Part shown: positions 19,167 to 28,304 of the stretch, piece after piece | Layout of the letters: each line of letters starts with the position of its first letter | Position numbering within the stretch: position 1 is the first letter of the stretch | DNA from: Chthonomonadales bacterium | GTDB lineage: Bacteria > Armatimonadota > Chthonomonadetes > Chthonomonadales > Chthonomonadaceae | Reading direction: 5' to 3' | DNA: 31,797 nucleotides | NCBI GenBank assembly: GCA_038217285.1 | Contig: JBBQPO010000031.1 | Coordinates: forward strand, 1-31,797 | The notes under the pieces: model-generated | The model's database searches: none | Told to the model about the DNA's origin: nothing | What the model saw: only the letters and a program-made list of their open reading frames with translations | Program-made: the position numbers and the translations under genes

Positions 19167-19195
19167 TTGCAATGACGTTGTAGATATGATAGAAT
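19167..19195 (+). promoter_or_regulatory. Sigma70 promoter of the leader/YHS/MCO operon
   Basis: TTGCAA (19167-72), 17 nt, TGa-TAGAAT (19187-95). Confidence 0.65.
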
Positions 19196-19245: not shown

Positions 19246-19686
19246 ATGAGCATGCCGAGAACACAACCTATAATCGGATATCTGGCGGTCTTGCTGGTAA
19301 TGGCATTTTCAATGTCGGCGACCAGTCGGCCTGTTCTCGCCGACTGTGCGCCGGGAGATCACTCCAGCGCCCCTCGTTCCTGCTGTGTGGCTCATGTCCA
19401 CTCTCCGTGTTGTCCGGATATGAACCACGGCTCCTTCCAACATCGCGTTGGCTCCGGCCATTGCGAGGCGGGTGACTGCCCGTGCCATCTTACGGCGGGC
19501 CAGACCAACGCTTCCTTACCGGCGGCCGCCACGGAACTGTCGTACTCGGCATTGCTGGTGTCTCGCCCGGTGATTTTCGTTCTTACCTCGGCGCAGCGCG
19601 GCCCGCCGATGGCCGCCGCCAGTCCGTCTTTCCAAAGCGTTTCACATTCCTCCTCCTCGCCTCGCGCTCCACCTTTCCAGGGATGA
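19246..19686 (+). CDS. Exported Cys/His-rich leader protein with C-terminal RAPP arrest motif (CruR/CutF/DUF2946-like)
   Basis: Hydrophobic N-terminal signal; 'DC...SCCVAHVHSPCCPDMNH...HCEAGDCPCH'; C-terminus '...SSSSPRAPPFQG*'. Confidence 0.72.
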   Translation: MSMPRTQPIIGYLAVLLVMAFSMSATSRPVLADCAPGDHSSAPRSCCVAHVHSPCCPDMNHGSFQHRVGSGHCEAGDCPCHLTAGQTNASLPAAATELSYSALLVSRPVIFVLTSAQRGPPMAAASPSFQSVSHSSSSPRAPPFQG

Positions 19687-19766
19687 GTCTGACTCCGACT
19701 GCCTCATCGCAGCCCTGACATTACGTCACGTCAACCCAATCCAAACTAAGTGGAAGGTAACCATCC

Positions 19767-20420
19767 ATGTTTTCCCAAACTATTCGTGCGTCTCGGCGCA
19801 TCTTTATCGCGGCTCTTGCCTGCGCCGCCGTGCTGTTGCCTGCTTCCGTTGTTCGCGCGGAGGAGGCCGGCGGCTACACATGCCCGGTGCTGCACAATCC
19901 GATTGCCAAAGTCACTAAAGAGACGCAGTTCTCGGACTTCAAAGGCGTACGGTACTACTACTGCTGCGACGGCTGCAAGCCTCAGTTCGACAAAGACCAG
20001 GCGAAATTCCTCAAAGACGATAAGAACAAAGGCAAAGTGATCGGGATGGCGCTCTTCGATCCCGTCACGACCAAACGCATCGAATCGGAGAAAGCGACCG
20101 CTCACACGGACTTCGGCGGTGTGCGCTACTTCTTTGCCGCCAAGGGCGATCAGAAGACCTTCGCCAAAGAGCCGAAGAAATTCGCCGTTGCGCCCAAAAA
20201 GGAGCTTCTCTACTGCCCGGTGAGCGACGCGATCGTGGACTCCTATGCCACCGCCTCCGACTACAGCGACTACAAGGACATCCGCTACTTCTTCTGTTGC
20301 GCCGGATGCAAGCCGAGGTTCGATAAGAACCCGGACCAGTATCTGACGGGCCTGGAGGCGCGCGTCAAGAGCGCCCAGGAGAAGAAAGCGGCCGAAGCGC
20401 CGAAACCGGATGCCAAATAG
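19767..20420 (+). CDS. Exported triple YHS/TRASH-domain metal-binding protein
   Basis: Signal peptide; repeats CPV..YYYCCDGCKPQF, DPV..YFFAAKGDQKTF (no Cys) and CPV..YFFCCAGCKPRF. Confidence 0.88.
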   Translation: MFSQTIRASRRIFIAALACAAVLLPASVVRAEEAGGYTCPVLHNPIAKVTKETQFSDFKGVRYYYCCDGCKPQFDKDQAKFLKDDKNKGKVIGMALFDPVTTKRIESEKATAHTDFGGVRYFFAAKGDQKTFAKEPKKFAVAPKKELLYCPVSDAIVDSYATASDYSDYKDIRYFFCCAGCKPRFDKNPDQYLTGLEARVKSAQEKKAAEAPKPDAK

Positions 20421-20482
20421 CAGTGTTAAAGAACGGCACGGCGGCAGCGAAATCAACAACTGCCGTGCCCAGAGGAACGAAA

Positions 20483-21775
20483 ATGGAAGAGAACAAGCAA
20501 GTAGGCCGCCGCACCTTTCTGTCCCGTCTGGCAGGACTGGCGGGAGCCTTTGGAATAGGCGCCGGACTGGACGCGCAGCCGGCTCAGGGACAAGGCAGGG
20601 TTATCAATCCGGCCGTGCCCAAAACCGACACGACCGCCGTGCCGGTGGAACACACGAAGCATAGCGGCTGGCCTTCGCAAATGGTCACTGACGAGACCGC
20701 GCCACGGTGGAACCCGCGCGATATGCCCAAGCCGGGCGATAAGATCCACGAGTTCAACATCGAGATTACCGTTGAGAAGATAGAAATACTGCCGCTGGAA
20801 GAGCACCACTTCTATACCTTCAACAAAACGCTGCCCGGTCCGGAAATCCGGGTGAAGGAGGGCGACTGGGTCAAGGTCAACCTGACCAACAAGACCCACG
20901 ATTTTCACACCATCCACTGGCATGGGATGTACGTTCCGTGCGAGATGGACGGCGTACCGCTCGGAACGCAGTATCCCGTCGGCTATAACCAGAAGTTCAC
21001 CTACCTGTGGCGGGCGCAGCCTGCGGGGACGCACTTCTATCACTGCCACAACATGACCAACATGCACATTCAAGCCGGTCTGTACGGTTCGCTGATCGTG
21101 GAACCGGCAGGCGAGGATATCGTGCAGAAAACATTCCCCTACGACCGCGAATACACCCTGGTGTTGAGCGAGGTGGACACCGATTTTCTGCGCGAACAGA
21201 TGAATATGATGCTGACGATGGGCGCTACGATGGATGCCATGAACGGCTCCACCAAGCTGATGTCCAAAATGAATGGGCATATGATGGGATGGTTCGCGAA
21301 TAAAGAAGAGTTCGTCAAAGCCGTCAAGAGCGGATGGATGCCGCCCTACCATCGCAGCCGCACCGGCCCGGCGACGAAAATCGAGCCGAACTTCTTCCTG
21401 ATCAACGGCAGACCCTATCCCATGACCGAACACATGCATATCAGGCGGGGTGAAAACGTCCGCGTTCGGCTCATCAATGCCGGAATGCTCGTTCATAACA
21501 TGCACCTGCACGGCCATGACTTCTGGCATGTCTGCACCGACGGCGCACCGCTCGCGTCGCCTGTTCGCATGAACACCGTGCCGGTCTTTGCCGGCAGTAC
21601 GGCGGACATCGTTATTCAAGGCACGAATCCGGGAGCATGGCACTTCCACGACCACAGCGACATCAGCACCATGAACAACGGCATATCGCCGGGCGGTATG
21701 ATGACGATGCTGATGTACGAAGATGCCGAAGAGGCCGGTTTCAAGTTCAAGGAGATCATTGCGACGGACTCCTGA
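20483..21775 (+). CDS. Tat-exported two-domain multicopper oxidase (T1 site in domain 1) with Met-rich insert
   Basis: GRRTFL Tat motif; HTIHWHG, HFYHCH..H....L, HNMHLHGH, WHFHDH. Confidence 0.9.
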   Translation: MEENKQVGRRTFLSRLAGLAGAFGIGAGLDAQPAQGQGRVINPAVPKTDTTAVPVEHTKHSGWPSQMVTDETAPRWNPRDMPKPGDKIHEFNIEITVEKIEILPLEEHHFYTFNKTLPGPEIRVKEGDWVKVNLTNKTHDFHTIHWHGMYVPCEMDGVPLGTQYPVGYNQKFTYLWRAQPAGTHFYHCHNMTNMHIQAGLYGSLIVEPAGEDIVQKTFPYDREYTLVLSEVDTDFLREQMNMMLTMGATMDAMNGSTKLMSKMNGHMMGWFANKEEFVKAVKSGWMPPYHRSRTGPATKIEPNFFLINGRPYPMTEHMHIRRGENVRVRLINAGMLVHNMHLHGHDFWHVCTDGAPLASPVRMNTVPVFAGSTADIVIQGTNPGAWHFHDHSDISTMNNGISPGGMMTMLMYEDAEEAGFKFKEIIATDS

Positions 21776-21832: not shown

Positions 21833-23062
21833 TTGAAAAAGAACCGACATGGAGGAGCGTTACTGGCCCTTATCGCAGCGCTCCTCCCCGGCGCGGCGCA
21901 TGGGCAGGCGCAGCAGACACCTATCCCGGAGCAGCCGAGCGTTGCGCCGCAGATCGAGCTGGACGGCACCGGCATCGGCACACTGCAGTACAGCACGCCG
22001 CGTATCACGCTGTTCAACGGCGCACGGTCCAGCAGCAGCCGCATAAATCTGTCGGACTCGGCCCTGCTGCTGGGCGTTTCGGAGCGACTGGCGGCGAAGG
22101 GCGGCATCGGCAGTTTCGTCGTCGGGCTGACCTCGACCGAATCGAACCGCGCGCCGAGCGGCACGGATGCGTTCCTGCATCAGTTATATGTCAACTATCA
22201 GACCAACAAAATCGAAGGCACGATCGGGCGTACCGATACCGGTACCCGGCTCGTGGACTTTCCGACGATACGCGGCGATGATCTGAACGAGTTCGTCAAC
22301 GTGCTCAATCCGTTCTCGGATGGCAGCAACGTGCAGGAACATCGCTACACCAATCAGGCCACCGTCATGCTGCACCCCGGTCTGCGCTCTACGGTGAACT
22401 TTCACCTGCAAAATCTGATCACCTCGACCCCTTCCACGGTCGGGCAGGGAGGCATCAACTCTTATGGAGTCGCCTATCAGTACCAGGAGCTGGCGGCGCT
22501 GGAGAACTTGAAAAAGGTTCCGCTCTGGGGCGGCGGGTTCGAGCGGAGATCTCTGGGCAATGGAGAGGGCGGCGCCTCCAATGTCGTCTACGGCGGTATC
22601 GTCTACAACATCGCGCCCGATCCCGTAGACCGCATCGACCTGCGCGTACAGGACTACTACGCCTTCGGCAACGATACCCGCGCCTTCAACACCGTCACGG
22701 ACACCTTTCGGGCCGATGGCAACACCATCGCGGTTTCGCTGCGCTATCTGCACAGTCCGTTCGGAGTTCCCGGCTATCAGGTGTCGCTGACCGCAGGCTA
22801 CAAGACCTACGACAAGGTGCGCGCCAGTAACACGTTTGGGATGGCGCTCACAGGCGTGAAGCGCCTGGGCAGCGGCTTCGATCTGGTGATGCAGTACCAG
22901 TACCAGAATCGACAGTCCGCCTATGCCTCTGCGTATAGCGGGGTGAAAGACGAACACTCCCTCCAGATCGGGTTTACGTTCAACTTCAACAACACCTTCA
23001 ACAAGCATCTCGGGCCCCGCCGCTCCCTGTTGAACCTACAGCATCAGTACCTCCCCGACTAG
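21833..23062 (+). CDS. Exported protein, probable outer-membrane porin
   Basis: TTG start after AAGGAG; signal peptide; alternating beta-strand patterns ('YQVSLTAGYKTY', 'FDLVMQYQYQ', 'SLQIGFTFNF'). Confidence 0.7.
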   Translation: MKKNRHGGALLALIAALLPGAAHGQAQQTPIPEQPSVAPQIELDGTGIGTLQYSTPRITLFNGARSSSSRINLSDSALLLGVSERLAAKGGIGSFVVGLTSTESNRAPSGTDAFLHQLYVNYQTNKIEGTIGRTDTGTRLVDFPTIRGDDLNEFVNVLNPFSDGSNVQEHRYTNQATVMLHPGLRSTVNFHLQNLITSTPSTVGQGGINSYGVAYQYQELAALENLKKVPLWGGGFERRSLGNGEGGASNVVYGGIVYNIAPDPVDRIDLRVQDYYAFGNDTRAFNTVTDTFRADGNTIAVSLRYLHSPFGVPGYQVSLTAGYKTYDKVRASNTFGMALTGVKRLGSGFDLVMQYQYQNRQSAYASAYSGVKDEHSLQIGFTFNFNNTFNKHLGPRRSLLNLQHQYLPD

Positions 23063-23107: not shown

Positions 23108-23803
23108 ATGAATACCAAAAACAGGTGCAAGGCCTTTCGAAATATCACGAACACAGCCGCATTCAGTTTGGGAATGACGCTGCTCATCGCGCTGGCGGGC
23201 GCACAGGAGGTCGCGGGCGGAGCCGCGAAAAAGGACGGACATGCCTCCAAGGGGGCAATGAGGGAGATGTCGCGTCTCAAAGAGGCAGGCGTCATGACCG
23301 TCCAGGGGGATGAAAACTGGGACGATATGCTGGGCTTCGGCAAAGACTCCAACATGGCGGAGATGATGACGCTGATGATGGTCGGCGGGTCAGGCATGGA
23401 GCACATGAAGATGGCCGCCATGCGTCCCGGGTTGAGTATGGGCGCCATGCAGATGGACAAGACAAAGACGAAGGGCATGGCGGAGAAGAACAGCGCCGTC
23501 GAGGGATGGAAAATGAGCATCAATACCGATCCTAAAACCCTCGCGGTCGGCAAGAACATGCTGGACGTGACGATCCTCGACGCCAATGGCAAGCCTGTCA
23601 CCGGGGCGAAGGTAATGGGCGCGGTCGAAATGACGAGCATGGACATGGGCGTTACCAAGCCGAAGGCTCAGGAAGGCAAAGACGGACACTACATGGTGCC
23701 GGTGGAGTTCTCGATGAAGGGGCCGTGGCGCGTGACACTCACCGTTACCCCTCCCAAGCAGAAGCCGTTCACCAAGGCGCTGGACTTCAACATTCCTAAA
23801 TAA
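23108..23803 (+). CDS. Met-rich exported FixH/YtkA-domain protein (putative Cu chaperone)
   Basis: Met-rich N-half; C-term 'LDVTILDANGKPVTGAKV...MTSMDMG...GHY...FSMKGPWRVTLTV'. Confidence 0.8.
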   Translation: MNTKNRCKAFRNITNTAAFSLGMTLLIALAGAQEVAGGAAKKDGHASKGAMREMSRLKEAGVMTVQGDENWDDMLGFGKDSNMAEMMTLMMVGGSGMEHMKMAAMRPGLSMGAMQMDKTKTKGMAEKNSAVEGWKMSINTDPKTLAVGKNMLDVTILDANGKPVTGAKVMGAVEMTSMDMGVTKPKAQEGKDGHYMVPVEFSMKGPWRVTLTVTPPKQKPFTKALDFNIPK

Positions 23804-23913: not shown

Positions 23914-25242
23914 TCAGCGTATCACGACACGCACTACTGTAGGCGATCCCCATCCGGGCTTCCACTCGCTCGTGATCTCCTGCTCTCCCTGATAAAACGC
24001 CGAAGAGTTGGTCGGAAGGGTGTAGTCCTGCTTGAGTTTCCCCTGAGTATCACAGTAGTACTTGAACAGATACCGCCCTGGCGCAAGGCGTGGGGTTTGG
24101 CGCGCTTGCTTTTCCTGCTCGCTGCCTGCGGGAACCACCAGCCACATCCACAGGTTCGTGCTATGCCCCTGGGCAAACACCCCTCTGTCCCCCGTCGCCA
24201 CTGGCTGTTGTGTCCACGCGTTGCGCGTCGTATCCCAGGCATAGGCATCCACGCGCAGATTCTTGTCTCCCCACACTTCCGGAGTTTGATTTACCGTGAG
24301 AATGCAGTCGGTATAGACCAAAGCGTCTTTGGAAACCTTCGGAAGATCTTTCTCGCTGCGATACGTTCCCTTCACGCTGGCCGCATAGTCCTCGATCCAG
24401 GCGCGGAACTGTTTGTAACCGGCGTCGCCATAGAGGAGTTTTACTCCACCTCCATGAGGAACAACATTGAGGGGCTTGAGCAGAAAGAGGCTCTTTTCGG
24501 GTTCCTGTACGTTGATGAGTTTGTGTTCAACCAGGCGTCGCATGGTAGCTTCGGCGTTACCGGGGACAAACCAGTTGACCCGCTCCCCGTATTTCTCGAC
24601 ATTCTTTGCGTTCTCCGGCGTTCCGGGACGGTGGCAGCCCATACAGCGCCCTTCCTGGGACCAGACGTTGCGCTCAAAAGAGGCGACGACGCTGTCTAAA
24701 CGCGTGTGACGGAGGACGGCATTGGAAACGGCAGGCCCTGTACGCTCGGCGGCGGGAAGAGCAGGCGTTGTGCGAAGTTTGGGATCCTGTACGGCGGCAG
24801 CGATCCAGTCCCGAAAGGCCATGTACTCCACATCGCGTGCCTTCTGCGTTACGAGACCGGTTTTTGGCGTAGACTTCCGGATGAGCTGCAAAAGGTGAGA
24901 AGAATCGGGCTTCTTTAGATCAATCATGCCTCCATCCCGCAGGGAGGCGAAGGTCTGCGCTTCCGAGGGACGGATATAATCTTTCAAATCCACGCCCGAT
25001 AGATGGCATTCGGCGCAACTGGAGGGGTTGGGGGACTTGAAAAGTGGGAGGATACGTCGCTCGAAAACGTTCCGTGAAGCAGCAGCCGGACTTTGTCCGC
25101 GTGCAGCAGGTAAGAGGATGGCAACGGGCAGGAGAGCTGCCACGAAGAGGTACGCAAGGGTCCGTACTCCTGTGGATACTTTTCGGAGTTGGTCGGACCC
25201 CGGTCTGCTGCACAGCAAGCGGTAACTCATTCTGTGGTTCAT
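23914..25242 (-). CDS. Exported protein with two CxxCH haem-c motifs
   Basis: ATG at 25242 after GGAGA; hydrophobic signal; CAECH and CMGCH; 'PEKSLFLLKP...PHGGG'. Confidence 0.75.
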   Translation of the reverse strand: MNHRMSYRLLCSRPGSDQLRKVSTGVRTLAYLFVAALLPVAILLPAARGQSPAAASRNVFERRILPLFKSPNPSSCAECHLSGVDLKDYIRPSEAQTFASLRDGGMIDLKKPDSSHLLQLIRKSTPKTGLVTQKARDVEYMAFRDWIAAAVQDPKLRTTPALPAAERTGPAVSNAVLRHTRLDSVVASFERNVWSQEGRCMGCHRPGTPENAKNVEKYGERVNWFVPGNAEATMRRLVEHKLINVQEPEKSLFLLKPLNVVPHGGGVKLLYGDAGYKQFRAWIEDYAASVKGTYRSEKDLPKVSKDALVYTDCILTVNQTPEVWGDKNLRVDAYAWDTTRNAWTQQPVATGDRGVFAQGHSTNLWMWLVVPAGSEQEKQARQTPRLAPGRYLFKYYCDTQGKLKQDYTLPTNSSAFYQGEQEITSEWKPGWGSPTVVRVVIR

Positions 25243-25445
25243 GCCGTTTCTCCAGGGTAAGAATTCTGCCAGCCTCCTCTGCGAGGTTTTTGTTATTTCC
25301 ACTGCCCGCACGGGATCACCTGCTTTCGCGCCTCCGTACAACCCACGACCGGCGTTCCTGTCACAGGAGCGGACGCCACCTTTTTGTCTTACCGTAAAAG
25401 AGAGGAACTTCGCGCGGGGATTGGTCGTCATTTATGCTATAGGGC

Positions 25446-25462
25446 ATACCCCTATAGGGTAT
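25446..25462 (+). promoter_or_regulatory. CsoR operator
   Basis: Palindrome ATACCC-CTATA-GGGTAT, 14 nt before csoR, matching the TAC-C-tract/G-tract-GTA style of CsoR boxes. Confidence 0.8.
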
Positions 25463-25476
25463 ATAGGGAGGATGAG

Positions 25477-25758
25477 ATGGCTATTCAGAACGAGGAAAAA
25501 GAGGATGTCCTGCGCCGTCTGAACCGTATCGAGGGCCAGGTAAAAGGCATTAAACGGTTGGTGGAAGAGGATACCTACTGTGTGGACGTGATGACCCAGG
25601 TCTCTTCGGTCCATGAAGCCCTGCGCAGCGTCGGCAAGATCCTGATGCGCAACCATCTGCAGCACTGCGTGACGGACGCCCTCCGCGATGGAGATGACAG
25701 CAAGGCTGAAAAGACCTATCAAGAGATGATGGATCTGATCTATAAGTTCGCAAAATAG
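25477..25758 (+). CDS. csoR: Copper-sensing repressor CsoR
   Basis: RRLNRIEGQVKGI, YCVDV, NHLQHCV (C-H-C ligands); GGAGG SD. Confidence 0.93.
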   Translation: MAIQNEEKEDVLRRLNRIEGQVKGIKRLVEEDTYCVDVMTQVSSVHEALRSVGKILMRNHLQHCVTDALRDGDDSKAEKTYQEMMDLIYKFAK

Positions 25759-25796
25759 CCCCATGACGGCTTCTGTTCGAGAAGGTGAGGTTGGAG

Positions 25797-28304
25797 ATGA
25801 GCACAGATATGGTCGCCGTTCTGGTCGGCGGTATAGGCATAATCGCGTTGCTGGCCTGGTTCTTCTTTGGTCCGAAGGAAGGCAAGCGCGCCGAGACAAA
25901 GGCGGGCGTGGCGAACAGCGGTCAGACGCTCGGTACTGTCGCTGCCGGACGGTCGGAACCGGTGCTGGAGCGGTGCGACCTGGCGATTACGGGAATGCAC
26001 TGCGCCGCATGTATCGGACGGGTGGAGAAGGCTATCAAACAGGTGCCGGGCGTCCAGGACGCGACCGTCAGCCTTCTGGCGGAGCGCGCCGTCGTCACGT
26101 TCGACGCGAGTCAGGCGAAGGCCGAAGATCTGGTCGCTGCCGTATACGACTCCGGTTACGATGCAAGCCTGGCGAACATGGACCATTTCGGCCAGACGCC
26201 GGCCACAAACCCGGAAGCAGGGACGACAGCGAAGCCGACGGAGGCGCAGGAGCTTCGGCGTCGATTCCTCACGTCGCTGGCGCTGACCCTCCCCGTGCTG
26301 GTGATGGGAATGGGGCCGCATCTCGGCCTGATCCCCATGCACTGGACGATGGTTGCGTGGTGGAACTGGGTGCAGCTGATTCTGACGACGCCTGTTCTGT
26401 TCTGGGCCGGGAGCGGCTTTTTTCGGGGTGCCTGGGCCGCCCTCAAGCAGCGGGCCAGCGATATGAACACCTTGATCGTCGTCGGCACCTTCAGCGCCTA
26501 TGCCTACTCTGCGGCCGTGACGATCGCGCCGGGCTTTTTTGCGGCCCGTAGTGTGCAGGACGGCGTCTACTTCGAGACGGCGGGCGTCATCGTGACGCTG
26601 ATCTTGATGGGTCGTCTGCTGGAGGCACGAGCCAAACGCAGCACGGGAACCGCCATTGAGAAACTGATCGGCCTGCAGCCCCGGACCGCGCGCGTGCTGC
26701 GGGACGGGCAGGAGGTGGACGTGCCGCTTGCCGAGGTGCATGTGGGCGACCAGCTCCTGGTGCGGCCCGGCGAGAAAGTCCCCGTGGACGGCGTGGTGGT
26801 GTCCGGCCACTCATGGGTGGACGAGTCGATGCTGACGGGCGAGAGCCTGCCGGTGGAGAAGCGGGAAGGCGAGACCGTGACGGGTGCGACGCTCAATCAG
26901 CGCGGCGCGTTCACGATGGAAGCGAAACGCGTGGGGAAGGACACCGCGCTGGCCCAGATCGTGCGGATGGTGGAGCAGGCGCAAGGCAGCCGTGCGCCCA
27001 TTCAGAGGCTCGCCGATGTGATCACCGGTTATTTCGTGCCGGTCGTGCTGATGCTCGCCATCGCCACCTTTACCGGCTGGTATCTCCTGGGGCCGGAGCC
27101 GAAGTTCTTGCACGCCCTGCTCGCCTTCGTCGCGGTGCTGATCATCGCCTGCCCTTGCGCGCTCGGCCTCGCGACGCCTACCGCGATCATGGTCGGCACC
27201 GGGCGCGGCGCGCAGTTGGGCATCCTTATTAAAGACGCGGAGTCGCTGGAGACGGTGCACCGCGTTCAGACGGTCGTGTTGGACAAGACCGGAACCGTCA
27301 CGGAGGGCAAGCCCGCCCTGACCGATGTGATCACCGCGCCGGGAGTTGCGGAGACTGATCTGCTGCGTCTGGCGGCCTCGGTCGAGCGCGGCAGCGAACA
27401 TCCGCTGGCAGGCGCTATTGTTGCGGGCGCTCAGGCGCAGGGAATCGGACTGGCCGAAGCGACACAGTTCCAGGCGCTCGCCGGACGAGGCGTGGAAGCC
27501 CGTGTGGAGGGCCACGACCTGCTGCTCGGCAATGCCGCGCTGCTGCAAGAACGTGGCATCGACACAGCGGCCTTCGAGGCAGAGATGGCGCGACTGTCCG
27601 GGGAAGGCAAGACCCCCATGCTGGTGGCGCTCGACGGGAAAGCGGCGGGGGTGCTCGCCGTCGCCGACCCGATTAAGGCGACCGCGCCTGCCGCGATTGC
27701 GCGCCTGAAGGCGATGGACGTGACGGTGGTGATGCTCACCGGTGACAACCGCCGCACGGCGGAAGCGGTCGCCCGACAGGTCGGCATCGAGCGTGTGCTG
27801 CCGGAAGTGCTTCCGGCGCACAAGGCGGAGGAGATAAAGCGGCTGCAGGCTGCAGGTCAGGTCGTGGCGATGGTCGGCGACGGCATCAACGACGCCCCCG
27901 CTCTAGCGCAGGCAGATATCGGCATGGCCATCGGCACCGGAACGGACGTGGCTATCGAGGCCGCCGACGTCGTGCTGATGCGCGGCGACCTGAACGGCGT
28001 CGCCGACGCGATCGAGCTGTCGCGGGCCACCATGCGCAACATCCGGCAGAACCTGGCCTTTGCGTTCGGCTACAACACTCTGGGGATCCCGATTGCGGCG
28101 GGCGTGCTGTTTCCCTTCACGGGCTGGCTGCTCTCCCCGATGATCGCCTCGGCGGCGATGGCTCTGAGCAGCGTGTCGGTGGTGACGAATGCCCTGCGTC
28201 TGCGCAGCTTCGCGCCCACCGGTTCCCGAAAGGTTCAGGATCCCGCCGACACGCTCTCCCCACCGGTCCAGGCGGAACCCCGCGAGATTAAACGCACGGC
28301 GTGA
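25797..28304 (+). CDS. copA: Cu(I)-transporting P1B-1 ATPase
   Basis: GMHCAAC HMA domain, [45 protein letters not shown]. Start 25785 or 25797. Confidence 0.96.

Follow-up and report, generated by a model that had tools for sequence, protein, structure and literature searches.

A RAPP-tailed, cysteine-rich leader outside DUF2946 as a candidate arrest peptide of copper operons in Armatimonadota

Copper-sensing leader peptides that act by stalling the ribosome through their own nascent chain have been described between 2022 and 2025, almost all of them in Proteobacteria and Actinomycetota and almost all members of DUF2946. For CruR, the RAPP motif (Arg-Ala-Pro-Pro) is reported to be required for regulation, with copper releasing the stall (PMC9426467), and arrest in vitro has been described, the P and A sites being occupied by the two proline codons (PMC12992588). 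For CutF, the stall is reported to open a stem-loop that masks the Shine-Dalgarno (SD) sequence (PMC9973294; bioRxiv 10.1101/2025.02.05.636593), and copper is described as holding it, with translocon pulling, EF-P and disulfide formation as the means of its release (bioRxiv 10.1101/2025.02.05.636593). A 2025 census of small secretory proteins carrying RAPP or RGPP, found across phyla with metal genes downstream, reports that both motifs are strongly avoided in proteomes save near the C-termini of small exported arrest peptides (PMC12992588). Here, we analyse a leader open reading frame (ORF) of 146 amino acids at positions 19246..19686 (+) of contig JBBQPO010000031.1 (GenBank assembly GCA_038217285.1; 31,797 nucleotides, hereafter the window), from an uncultured soil or sediment bacterium of the order Chthonomonadales, phylum Armatimonadota. 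A first-pass annotation, made from the sequence alone, had proposed that this ORF is a metal-sensing arrest leader wired to a hairpin that masks the SD of the next gene, which encodes a YHS-domain protein. The reading that we prefer, with a probability of about 60%, is that the leader is a CutF/CruR-like arrest upstream ORF of a copper operon, which would unmask the downstream SD for as long as a ribosome is stalled on it.

The ORF at 19246-19686 is a real gene, with homologues in other genomes. Its product begins with MSMPRTQPIIGYLAVLLVMAFSMSATSRPVLA/D..., continues into a Cys/His-rich part and ends in ...SSSSPRAPPFQG, as the first-pass annotation had described together with the PRAPP tail and an earlier RGPP, all of which are confirmed on the sequence. 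The PRAPP codons (19660-19674) are followed by FQG and by the TGA stop codon at 19684-19686, and the RAPP motif itself (19663..19674, +) includes the codons of Pro142 (19669-19671) and Pro143 (19672-19674). Among 5.8 billion proteins, a word-indexed search returned a single relative of the leader, with 52% identity, and HMMER, run exhaustively on 1.84 billion representatives, returned 13 at E <= 0.001. Six-frame searches located the leader in 8 further genomes among 60 related ones (E <= 1e-5) and, across the phylum, in 15 of 401 genomes. All relatives belong to Armatimonadota, the named records being metagenome-assembled genomes of Chthonomonadales/Chthonomonadaceae. Loci of the family are designated here by L-numbers (L004, L005, L007 and so on); a scan of metagenome contigs added just two loci, in both of which the leader region is identical to that of L007. 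The peptide pattern S[SA]PRAPPFQ also occurs in stretches unconfirmed as relatives of the leader (59 of 65 on genome contigs and 87 of 89 on metagenome contigs), which may be chance matches, more distant leaders or other leader families with the same tail.

Identity to the window protein ranges from 27 to 52%, and from 27 to 34% among the more distant aligned members. Against this background of divergence, RAPP followed by a tail of exactly three residues is present in 20/20 aligned members, and RAPP was found, 2-5 residues from the stop codon, in 20/20 distinct loci, as well as in 13/13 library representatives; it is thus present in every homologue found, and the conservation check proposed in the first-pass annotation comes out in favour of RAPP. 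The tails of distant members read TRAPPFA, GRAPPTF, GRAPPIALG and SRAPPASER, and the last nine residues form the most conserved stretch of the whole leader. The conservation of RAPP and its tail is far beyond chance. Across the family, the Arg codon of the motif is used in two synonymous forms, the Ala codon in four and that of the first proline (Pro1) in four, and selection therefore acts on the peptide, not on the RNA alone. The distance between the CxC motif and RAPP is also constrained, at 58-61 residues in 9/9 family loci. In one locus (L026:5964-6439), the leader homologue is frameshifted into two pieces, which may reflect an assembly error or a pseudogene; its RAPPFQG tail, the motif that follows the stop codon and the SD pairing are intact.

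The N-terminal export signal spans residues 1-32 (...PVLA/D; 19246..19341, +), with Arg5, a hydrophobic core and an AxA-like cleavage site, as judged from reading the sequence and from an AlphaFold2 (AF2) helix at residues 8-24. The Cys/His-rich segment (residues 34-81; 19345..19488, +) contains the eight cysteines of the leader, at positions 34, 46, 47, 55, 56, 73, 78 and 80, of which C46, C47, C56, C78 and C80 are invariant; the leader also has eight histidines. The AF2 model built from 20 sequences had a mean pLDDT of 55.3 and a pTM of 0.21, and the helix at 8-24 was its sole element, as would be expected of a signal peptide with an unstructured or metal-dependent chain behind it. The RGPP codons (residues 118-121; 19597..19608, +) are a possible upstream pause site. 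An exact RGPP is present in 4/20 aligned members, including the window, each time at a spacing of 22 residues to RAPP, while the same column in the other members reads RGPL, RGLP, RHGPP, REPP or nothing related.

The first-pass annotation had placed the leader next to DUF2946 leaders and proposed a profile search against that family; this search gave no match. The leader protein has no Pfam family at E <= 0.1 and likewise no NCBIfam match, the DUF2946 profile PF11162 had zero matches to 10 members of the leader family at E <= 10, and a six-frame search of the window's genome with PF11162 found nothing at the leader, its best match elsewhere reaching 14.8 bits against a cut-off of 23.7. When 20 members of the leader family were compared with eight DUF2946 proteins of the same phylum by hhalign, the probability was 4.4%, with 23 columns aligned, in the signal-peptide region only. 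In ESM Atlas, the top named clusters were DUF6769 and unnamed Bacteroidota clusters (0.94, 124-127 shared features), and a cluster that is 23% DUF2946 ranked 28th, neither of which is informative. The leader family shares with DUF2946 the C-terminal RAPP tail and the position at the head of copper-gene operons. It has no conserved CxxC, whereas a cysteine motif of this kind is characteristic of DUF2946 leaders (CXXC in CruR, CxxxC in CutF), and the ruler between the cysteine motif and RAPP also differs, with 58-61 residues in the 9/9 leader loci, 43-47 in 8/8 DUF2946 proteins of the phylum and 45 in CruR. By these sequence features, the family has a DUF2946 architecture yet lies outside DUF2946, and the earlier remark that its ligand set and its targets look atypical holds, and extends to the spacing. 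PF11162 scored above its cut-off, though weakly, in 13 of the 401 Armatimonadota genomes, and the eight DUF2946 proteins of the phylum show CxxC, a ruler of 43-47 residues, R[AG]PP and a tail of 1-7 residues. Since these leaders and the family of the window occur side by side in the same phylum, Armatimonadota has two separate leader families. Canonical, weak-scoring DUF2946 leaders with variable short tails lie at L044-L053.

The first-pass annotation had also noted complementarity between the arrest-site codons and the SD of the next gene. In the family, anti-SD:SD pairing is a feature supported by covariation and by swapped-partner tests. The sequence N-CCU-UUC, formed by the last base of the Pro1 codon and by the codons of the second proline (Pro2) and of Phe, is complementary to a downstream SD of the form GAAAGG in most loci. 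The 3' end of the genome's 16S rRNA, ...CACCTCCTTTCT (also ...CACCUCCUUUCU), includes CCUUUC, and the arrest-site codons therefore mimic the ribosomal anti-SD. The RNA counts leave aside L038, whose downstream start could not be placed, and the first of the two L026 pieces. In 12/19 loci, the SD lies within the best duplex that the RAPP-to-stop segment forms with the spacer, and in 12/19 the segment is the best SD partner among all 24-nt windows of the leader. By partition function, pairing of the SD falls on the RAPP-to-stop segment with a share of at least 0.8 in 13/19 loci. In 11 of these 13, modelling a stalled ribosome with the first proline codon in the P site lifts the predicted SD accessibility to 0.13-0.47, up from 0.00-0.05; in L009 and L036, it already starts at 0.17-0.19.

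Own anti-SD and SD partners pair with a mean of -16.3 kcal/mol, against -13.3 kcal/mol when partners are swapped between loci, a difference that 0/20000 permutations equalled; the ungapped pairing run is likewise longer for own partners (7.63 vs 6.78; equalled in 8/5000 permutations). In a plain MAFFT alignment of 13 sequences, the seven-pair anti-SD:SD helix is paired in 88.6% of cells, and two of its pairs are changed on both sides. Scored jointly with a second helix, a hairpin in the spacer (helix 2), 82.1% of cells are paired, against 37-52% when the partner is slid by 1-3 columns, and 4/500 shuffles reach that percentage. The synonymous third base of the Pro1 codon pairs as A-U, G-U, G-C or U-G across loci. 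Compensated changes were also recognized by eye. In L009, CCC-UUU-CAG-G faces C-CUG-AAA-GGG in 10 perfect pairs, 213 nt apart, so that the leader tail CCCUUUCAGG matches CCUGAAAGGG just upstream of the GGAG SD of an oxidase gene (L009:1273-1527, -). In L037, the change is CUA/UAG: the Gln codon after PPF is a TAG stop and its SD-side partner is UAGAAAGGC, giving 9 perfect pairs (L037:1939-2051), with the tail cut to one residue by the same change. Others are CCUUCC/GGAAGG in L040 and G/C in L043 and L037. The Pro2 codon is CCT in 15/19 loci, compared with 19/134 proline codons (14%) in seven genes of the window.

In the window itself, the candidate anti-SD is ACCUUUC (19671..19677, +), consisting of the last base of Pro1 and the codons of Pro2 and Phe and containing the CCUUUC of the 16S 3' tail, and its partner is the SD GGAAGGU of the YHS gene (19752..19758, +), 8 nt before the ATG. 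The first-pass annotation had paired ACCTTTCCA (19671-19679) with TGGAAGGT (19751-19758); those coordinates are correct, while the complementarity as drawn needs a bulged T, and the ungapped register joins ACCTTTC at 19671-19677 to GGAAGGT at 19752-19758 in seven pairs, one of them G-U, with a duplex energy of -13.2 kcal/mol.

Several observations weigh against a regulatory role for this pairing, first of all in the window. Among 30-mers upstream of genes in the same genome, 41% pair as well (samples of 3000 and 1000), 132/369 other 24-nt windows of the leader pair equally well with the SD region, and 120/256 synonymous recodings of PPFQG pair with it better. In the predicted ensemble, the SD is 85% paired, and only 36% of that pairing is to the segment from RAPP to 12 nt past the stop codon; competitors for the SD are UUUCAC at 19640-19645 and local partners. 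The claim that a stalled ribosome exposes the SD, borne out by modelling in 11 of the 13 loci considered above, finds almost no echo here, where accessibility goes only from 0.15 in the free RNA to 0.17 with a modelled stalled ribosome. The fold of the leader end and spacer (19640-19790), which had been suggested as a check, is no better than that of shuffled sequences (z = -0.62, 48/200 equal). The window helix thus stands at the weak end of the family and is indistinguishable from chance, and the earlier claim of pairing holds as a family feature with covariation and not for the window taken alone. For the family, the best duplex lies elsewhere in the spacer in 7/19 loci, and against a background of SD-bearing sequences of the genome 5/19 loci are in the best 5% and one in the best 1%. 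CCUUUC pairs with any SD of GAAAGG type, which makes the complementarity partly generic, and the preference for CCT at Pro2 could reflect a rare or slow codon in the A site instead of pairing. RNAalifold on the MAFFT alignment, in which the SD columns are misaligned in 3/13 rows, returned no anti-SD:SD helix and only a trivial local stem of 3 bp. The family loci are relatives of one another, and the counts over them are not independent events. At the protein level, the Cys/His-rich segment has a pLDDT below 50 and no fold in the AF2 model. Judged from sequence comparison and folding, the RNA switch is well supported in the relatives and marginal in the window.

From these features and from the described systems we infer arrest, export, copper binding, the sign of the response and the function of the window helix, as a logic of the CutF/SecM/MifM type that would apply if CruR-like arrest holds. 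The leader product would be synthesized with a Sec-type signal, and its Cys-rich part would be threaded through the translocon while the tail is still being translated. The ribosome would then arrest at RAPP, its P site occupied by Pro142 and its A site by Pro143, positions assigned because of the CruR toeprint reported in PMC12992588. The A-CCU-UUC codons, a copy of the 16S anti-SD lying under or just ahead of the arrested ribosome, would pair with the next SD when free; a ribosome arrested on 19669-19674 would cover the anti-SD (19671-19677) together with the last 12 nt of the ORF, and the SD, 75 nt downstream, could then not be masked by it. While the stall lasts, the open SD would allow translation of the YHS gene, and of the operon's remaining genes by coupling. 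Once arrest is released, translation would terminate three codons later, the helix would form and the SD would be masked again. Copper bound to the exposed cysteine cluster would prolong the arrest, as in CutF, and so keep the operon on.

The operon proposed in the first-pass annotation is borne out by the domains found. The first controlled gene would be that of a protein with three YHS domains (19767..20420, +; PF04945 in three stretches, E = 5.8e-20), followed by a multicopper oxidase gene (20423..21775, +; Cu-oxidase_3, 1.7e-32; Cu-oxidase_2, 2.7e-25), the true start of which is uncertain, with a twin-arginine-like RRTFL motif inside the ORF. Next comes an ORF of 409 aa (21833..23062, +) with no match in Pfam or NCBIfam, possibly an outer-membrane beta-barrel or porin-like protein, given its ESM Atlas feature look-alikes (YgjJ and porin clusters, 0.95-0.98), which serve as a lead only. 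It is followed by a YtkA/FixH-like gene (23108..23803, +; YtkA, 9.5e-14; FixH, 2.5e-06). Further downstream, at 25384-28304, are a CsoR-family repressor gene (PF02583, 2.6e-28) and, directly after it, an ORF of 839 aa that resembles a CopA-type P-type ATPase, as read by eye and not from the family scan. The CsoR-type repressor beside the leader operon would provide a second, transcriptional layer of copper control. Between the two groups of copper genes, an ORF of 505 aa on the opposite strand (23914-25431, -) has only a faint doubled-CXXCH match (E = 0.011) and matches no family in Pfam at E <= 0.001 or in NCBIfam at E <= 0.01.

In the relatives too, the leader is consistently associated with periplasmic copper proteins. 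The gene after the leader, scanned in 15 cases, encodes a YHS protein in six (the window and five others), a YtkA-like protein in six, and a multicopper oxidase, a plastocyanin/azurin-like protein and a family-less product in one each; the YtkA-like first genes encode proteins of ~400 aa, and the family-less one is a small Cys-rich ORF. In L009, there is no YHS gene, and the multicopper oxidase gene comes next, 213 nt past the leader. Overall, YHS, YtkA, Cu-oxidase or Copper-bind domains were found in 13/14 downstream proteins of relatives.

This gene content bears on the sign of the response. The first-pass annotation had metal binding or translocon pulling release the stall. We prefer the CutF sign, with a stall that copper lengthens and that pulling by the translocon ends, as physiologically more sensible than release by copper of the CruR type, because the stalled state would be the on state and the operon of oxidase, YHS and YtkA proteins lies next to CsoR-CopA. 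The same observations could be taken further, in a version that we consider quite unlikely, in which the leader would be an independently evolved Armatimonadota copper sensor with a CC/CxC/CxC cluster for Cu(I) and a 59-residue ruler, its arrest codons, as a copy of the 16S tail (CCUCCUUUC/CCUUUC), would act as a decoy for the SD, and in some members, the window among them, a second ribosome would line up at the RGPP exactly 22 codons upstream. Under this version, copper would be sensed just outside and not inside the translocon, since the ruler is ~14 residues longer than in DUF2946. If it were true, a single short sequence would be both a code for a stalling peptide and a decoy for the downstream SD, and the queue at RGPP would sharpen the response in some members.

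Other explanations differ from the preferred reading either in the step at which the leader acts or in what it is for. The same arrest peptide might act on transcription, with the stalled ribosome shielding a C-rich spacer from Rho, release leading to termination before the YHS gene, and the SD pairing secondary or incidental. This is the mechanism reported for CruR (PMC9426467), Rho is encoded in the genome (PF07497, 8.9e-33), and the spacer, in which no intrinsic terminator was found, is rich in C (0.35 C and 0.17 G; 0.34 C and 0.09 G in the 32 nt before the SD), as is the G-poor 32-nt stretch of L007, L011, L034 and L043. However, C exceeds G in the leader ORF as well, so the skew is not specific to the spacer, which moreover measures 80 nt in the window and 48-96 nt in 15/19 loci, compared with 162 nt in CruR. 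The weakness of the SD helix in the window favours a role for Rho, while the covariation in the family supports the anti-SD:SD helix; the two are not exclusive, since masking of the SD would leave untranslated RNA open to Rho. We regard control by Rho in place of SD masking as unlikely, though with a real chance of being right.

A different possibility starts from the invariant cysteines and from the conservation of the gene beside copper genes, and takes the leader for a working, secreted protein, rich in Cys, that would bind copper in the manner of a chaperone or metallothionein and be co-expressed with the operon, and whose tail would serve the protein itself, for instance in processing or partner binding. 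Conservation is nevertheless greatest in the last nine residues, RAPP stands exactly three residues from the end in all 20 aligned members, the nucleotides after RAPP are constrained beyond protein coding, the mature part of the leader has no confident AF2 fold, and the reported avoidance of RAPP and RGPP in proteomes outside arrest peptides (PMC12992588) is a further point against it, all of which makes a purely protein-level function very unlikely. As for the window genome alone, the RNA switch might have decayed, the leader still arresting while the YHS gene is translated constitutively from an SD that is largely open or otherwise paired, and control being transcriptional, for example by the CsoR-type repressor 5.6 kb downstream. 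Of the four loci known for the genus here, those of the window and its congener L005 are indeed the weakest, the SD reads GGAAGG instead of the GAAAGG of the family, and genes of the CsoR family and of a CopA-type ATPase are at hand. Yet the A-to-G change keeps a G-U pair and leaves the 7-bp core intact, and 0/18 other family anti-SD segments pair better with the window SD than its own does; no CsoR operator was found upstream of the leader, in a region read by eye only. Decay of the switch is, in our judgement, very doubtful, and the CutF/CruR-like arrest leader acting through the downstream SD remains the reading that we prefer.

Further sequence features flank the leader. A promoter-like site, TTGCAA-17-TAGAAT with a TG before the -10 element (19167..19195, +), is a consensus match only, found once against a shuffle mean of 0.3; by eye, L004 and L009 have a similar TGnTAGAAT upstream of their leaders. 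The palindromic motif GAGTCTGACTC (19685..19695, +) overlaps the leader stop codon and is conserved: it or its variant TGATTCCGNCTC lies directly 3' of the leader stop in most family loci, and L037 retains it despite a stop codon 6 nt earlier. This motif may extend the anti-SD helix toward a conserved TCAACTC in the spacer, or be a protein site. The spacer hairpin scored above as helix 2 is CUGC-N6-GCAG in the window (19699..19712, +), where its z is -0.18; across the family, a hairpin ~12 nt past the stop has z values from -3.7 to +1.4, and 71% of its cells are paired in the MAFFT alignment, with 3/4 pairs changed on both sides, which amounts to moderate support. It was rejected as an intrinsic terminator, with no U-run after it and no terminator-like site in the spacer. 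The competing helices listed in the first-pass annotation, CAGGG (19678-19682) with CCCTG (19713-19717) and GATGAG (19682-19687) with CTCATC (19703-19708), are present as sequences but do not appear in the minimum free energy structures and are not conserved, CAGGG/CCCTG recurring, by eye, in the L007 group only. A mini-ORF at 19683-19718, ATGAGTCTG...TGA (MSLTPTASSQP*), overlaps the leader stop through ATGA; it is probably not a conserved gene, because its ATG, present in many relatives, is replaced by ATA in L006 and by CTG in L036 and L040.

The logic of a copper-sensing stall would thus recur in a little-studied phylum, in a leader belonging to a protein family that family models miss. The main text of the RAPP/RGPP census (PMC12992588) mentions no Armatimonadota, no YHS, YtkA or multicopper oxidase neighbours and no SD pairing; the main text of PMC9973294 does not mention Armatimonad*, YHS or YtkA. 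A literature search for arrest peptides, RAPP or DUF2946 in Armatimonadota, including Chthonomonas, gave nothing relevant among the matches listed. The family offers natural variation for two questions, namely how the distance between metal site and arrest motif sets the response, and whether the arrest codons act as anti-SD themselves. For annotation, ~20 loci of hypothetical small ORFs can now be named, and the YHS and YtkA-like genes behind them flagged as putatively copper-regulated.

Among described systems, CutF of Rhodobacter capsulatus (cutFOG, DUF2946) is the closest in design. As reported (PMC9973294; bioRxiv 10.1101/2025.02.05.636593), it is, as the window leader is predicted to be, a small Sec-exported leader with a cysteine metal site and a proline stall motif at the C-terminus, placed directly upstream of an operon for a periplasmic copper-detoxifying oxidase, with a masked SD that the stalled ribosome opens. 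The two have no detectable sequence homology, and, on the published description, they differ in several parts: the CutF stall occurs at PPP and requires EF-P, whereas the window leader has RAPP plus three residues; CutF carries CxxxC, whereas the leader carries CC...C(x)C...C....CxC; the anti-SD of CutF lies in an intergenic stem-loop, whereas that of the leader would be formed by the arrest-site codons themselves; and, among the targets of the leader, the YHS protein comes first and the oxidase after it, unlike in CutF. CruR (Bp2923) of Bordetella pertussis, the prototype of DUF2946/PF11162, is described as having a similar size (~145 aa), predicted export and a position at the head of a copper operon (PMC9426467). 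In the same report, CruR has CXXC, 45 residues and RAPP three residues before the end, where the window family has CxC and 58-61 residues, and it works by Rho termination over a 162-nt spacer on a target that is a TonB-dependent importer, in contrast to the 80-nt spacer, SD-pairing design and detoxification-type targets of the window. With the small secretory RAPP/RGPP proteins upstream of metal genes in the census, which includes examples from Streptomyces lividans (PMC12992588), the leader shares, as far as they are described there, the C-terminal RAPP, a localization signal, a downstream gene on the same strand and conserved Cys/His residues, proposed in that work as a metal sensor. The RAPP class of motif is also shared with the arrest peptides ApdA and ApdP, according to the accounts of these (PMC7897499, PMC10951233), and the window leader shows the layout of RAPP/RGPP arrest proteins throughout: a small protein, an N-terminal signal, the motif at the C-terminus and a same-strand gene downstream. 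The control device itself is therefore known, and what this locus adds is a lineage-specific family outside DUF2946 with its own ligand set, its own ruler and its own targets, YHS and YtkA-like proteins.

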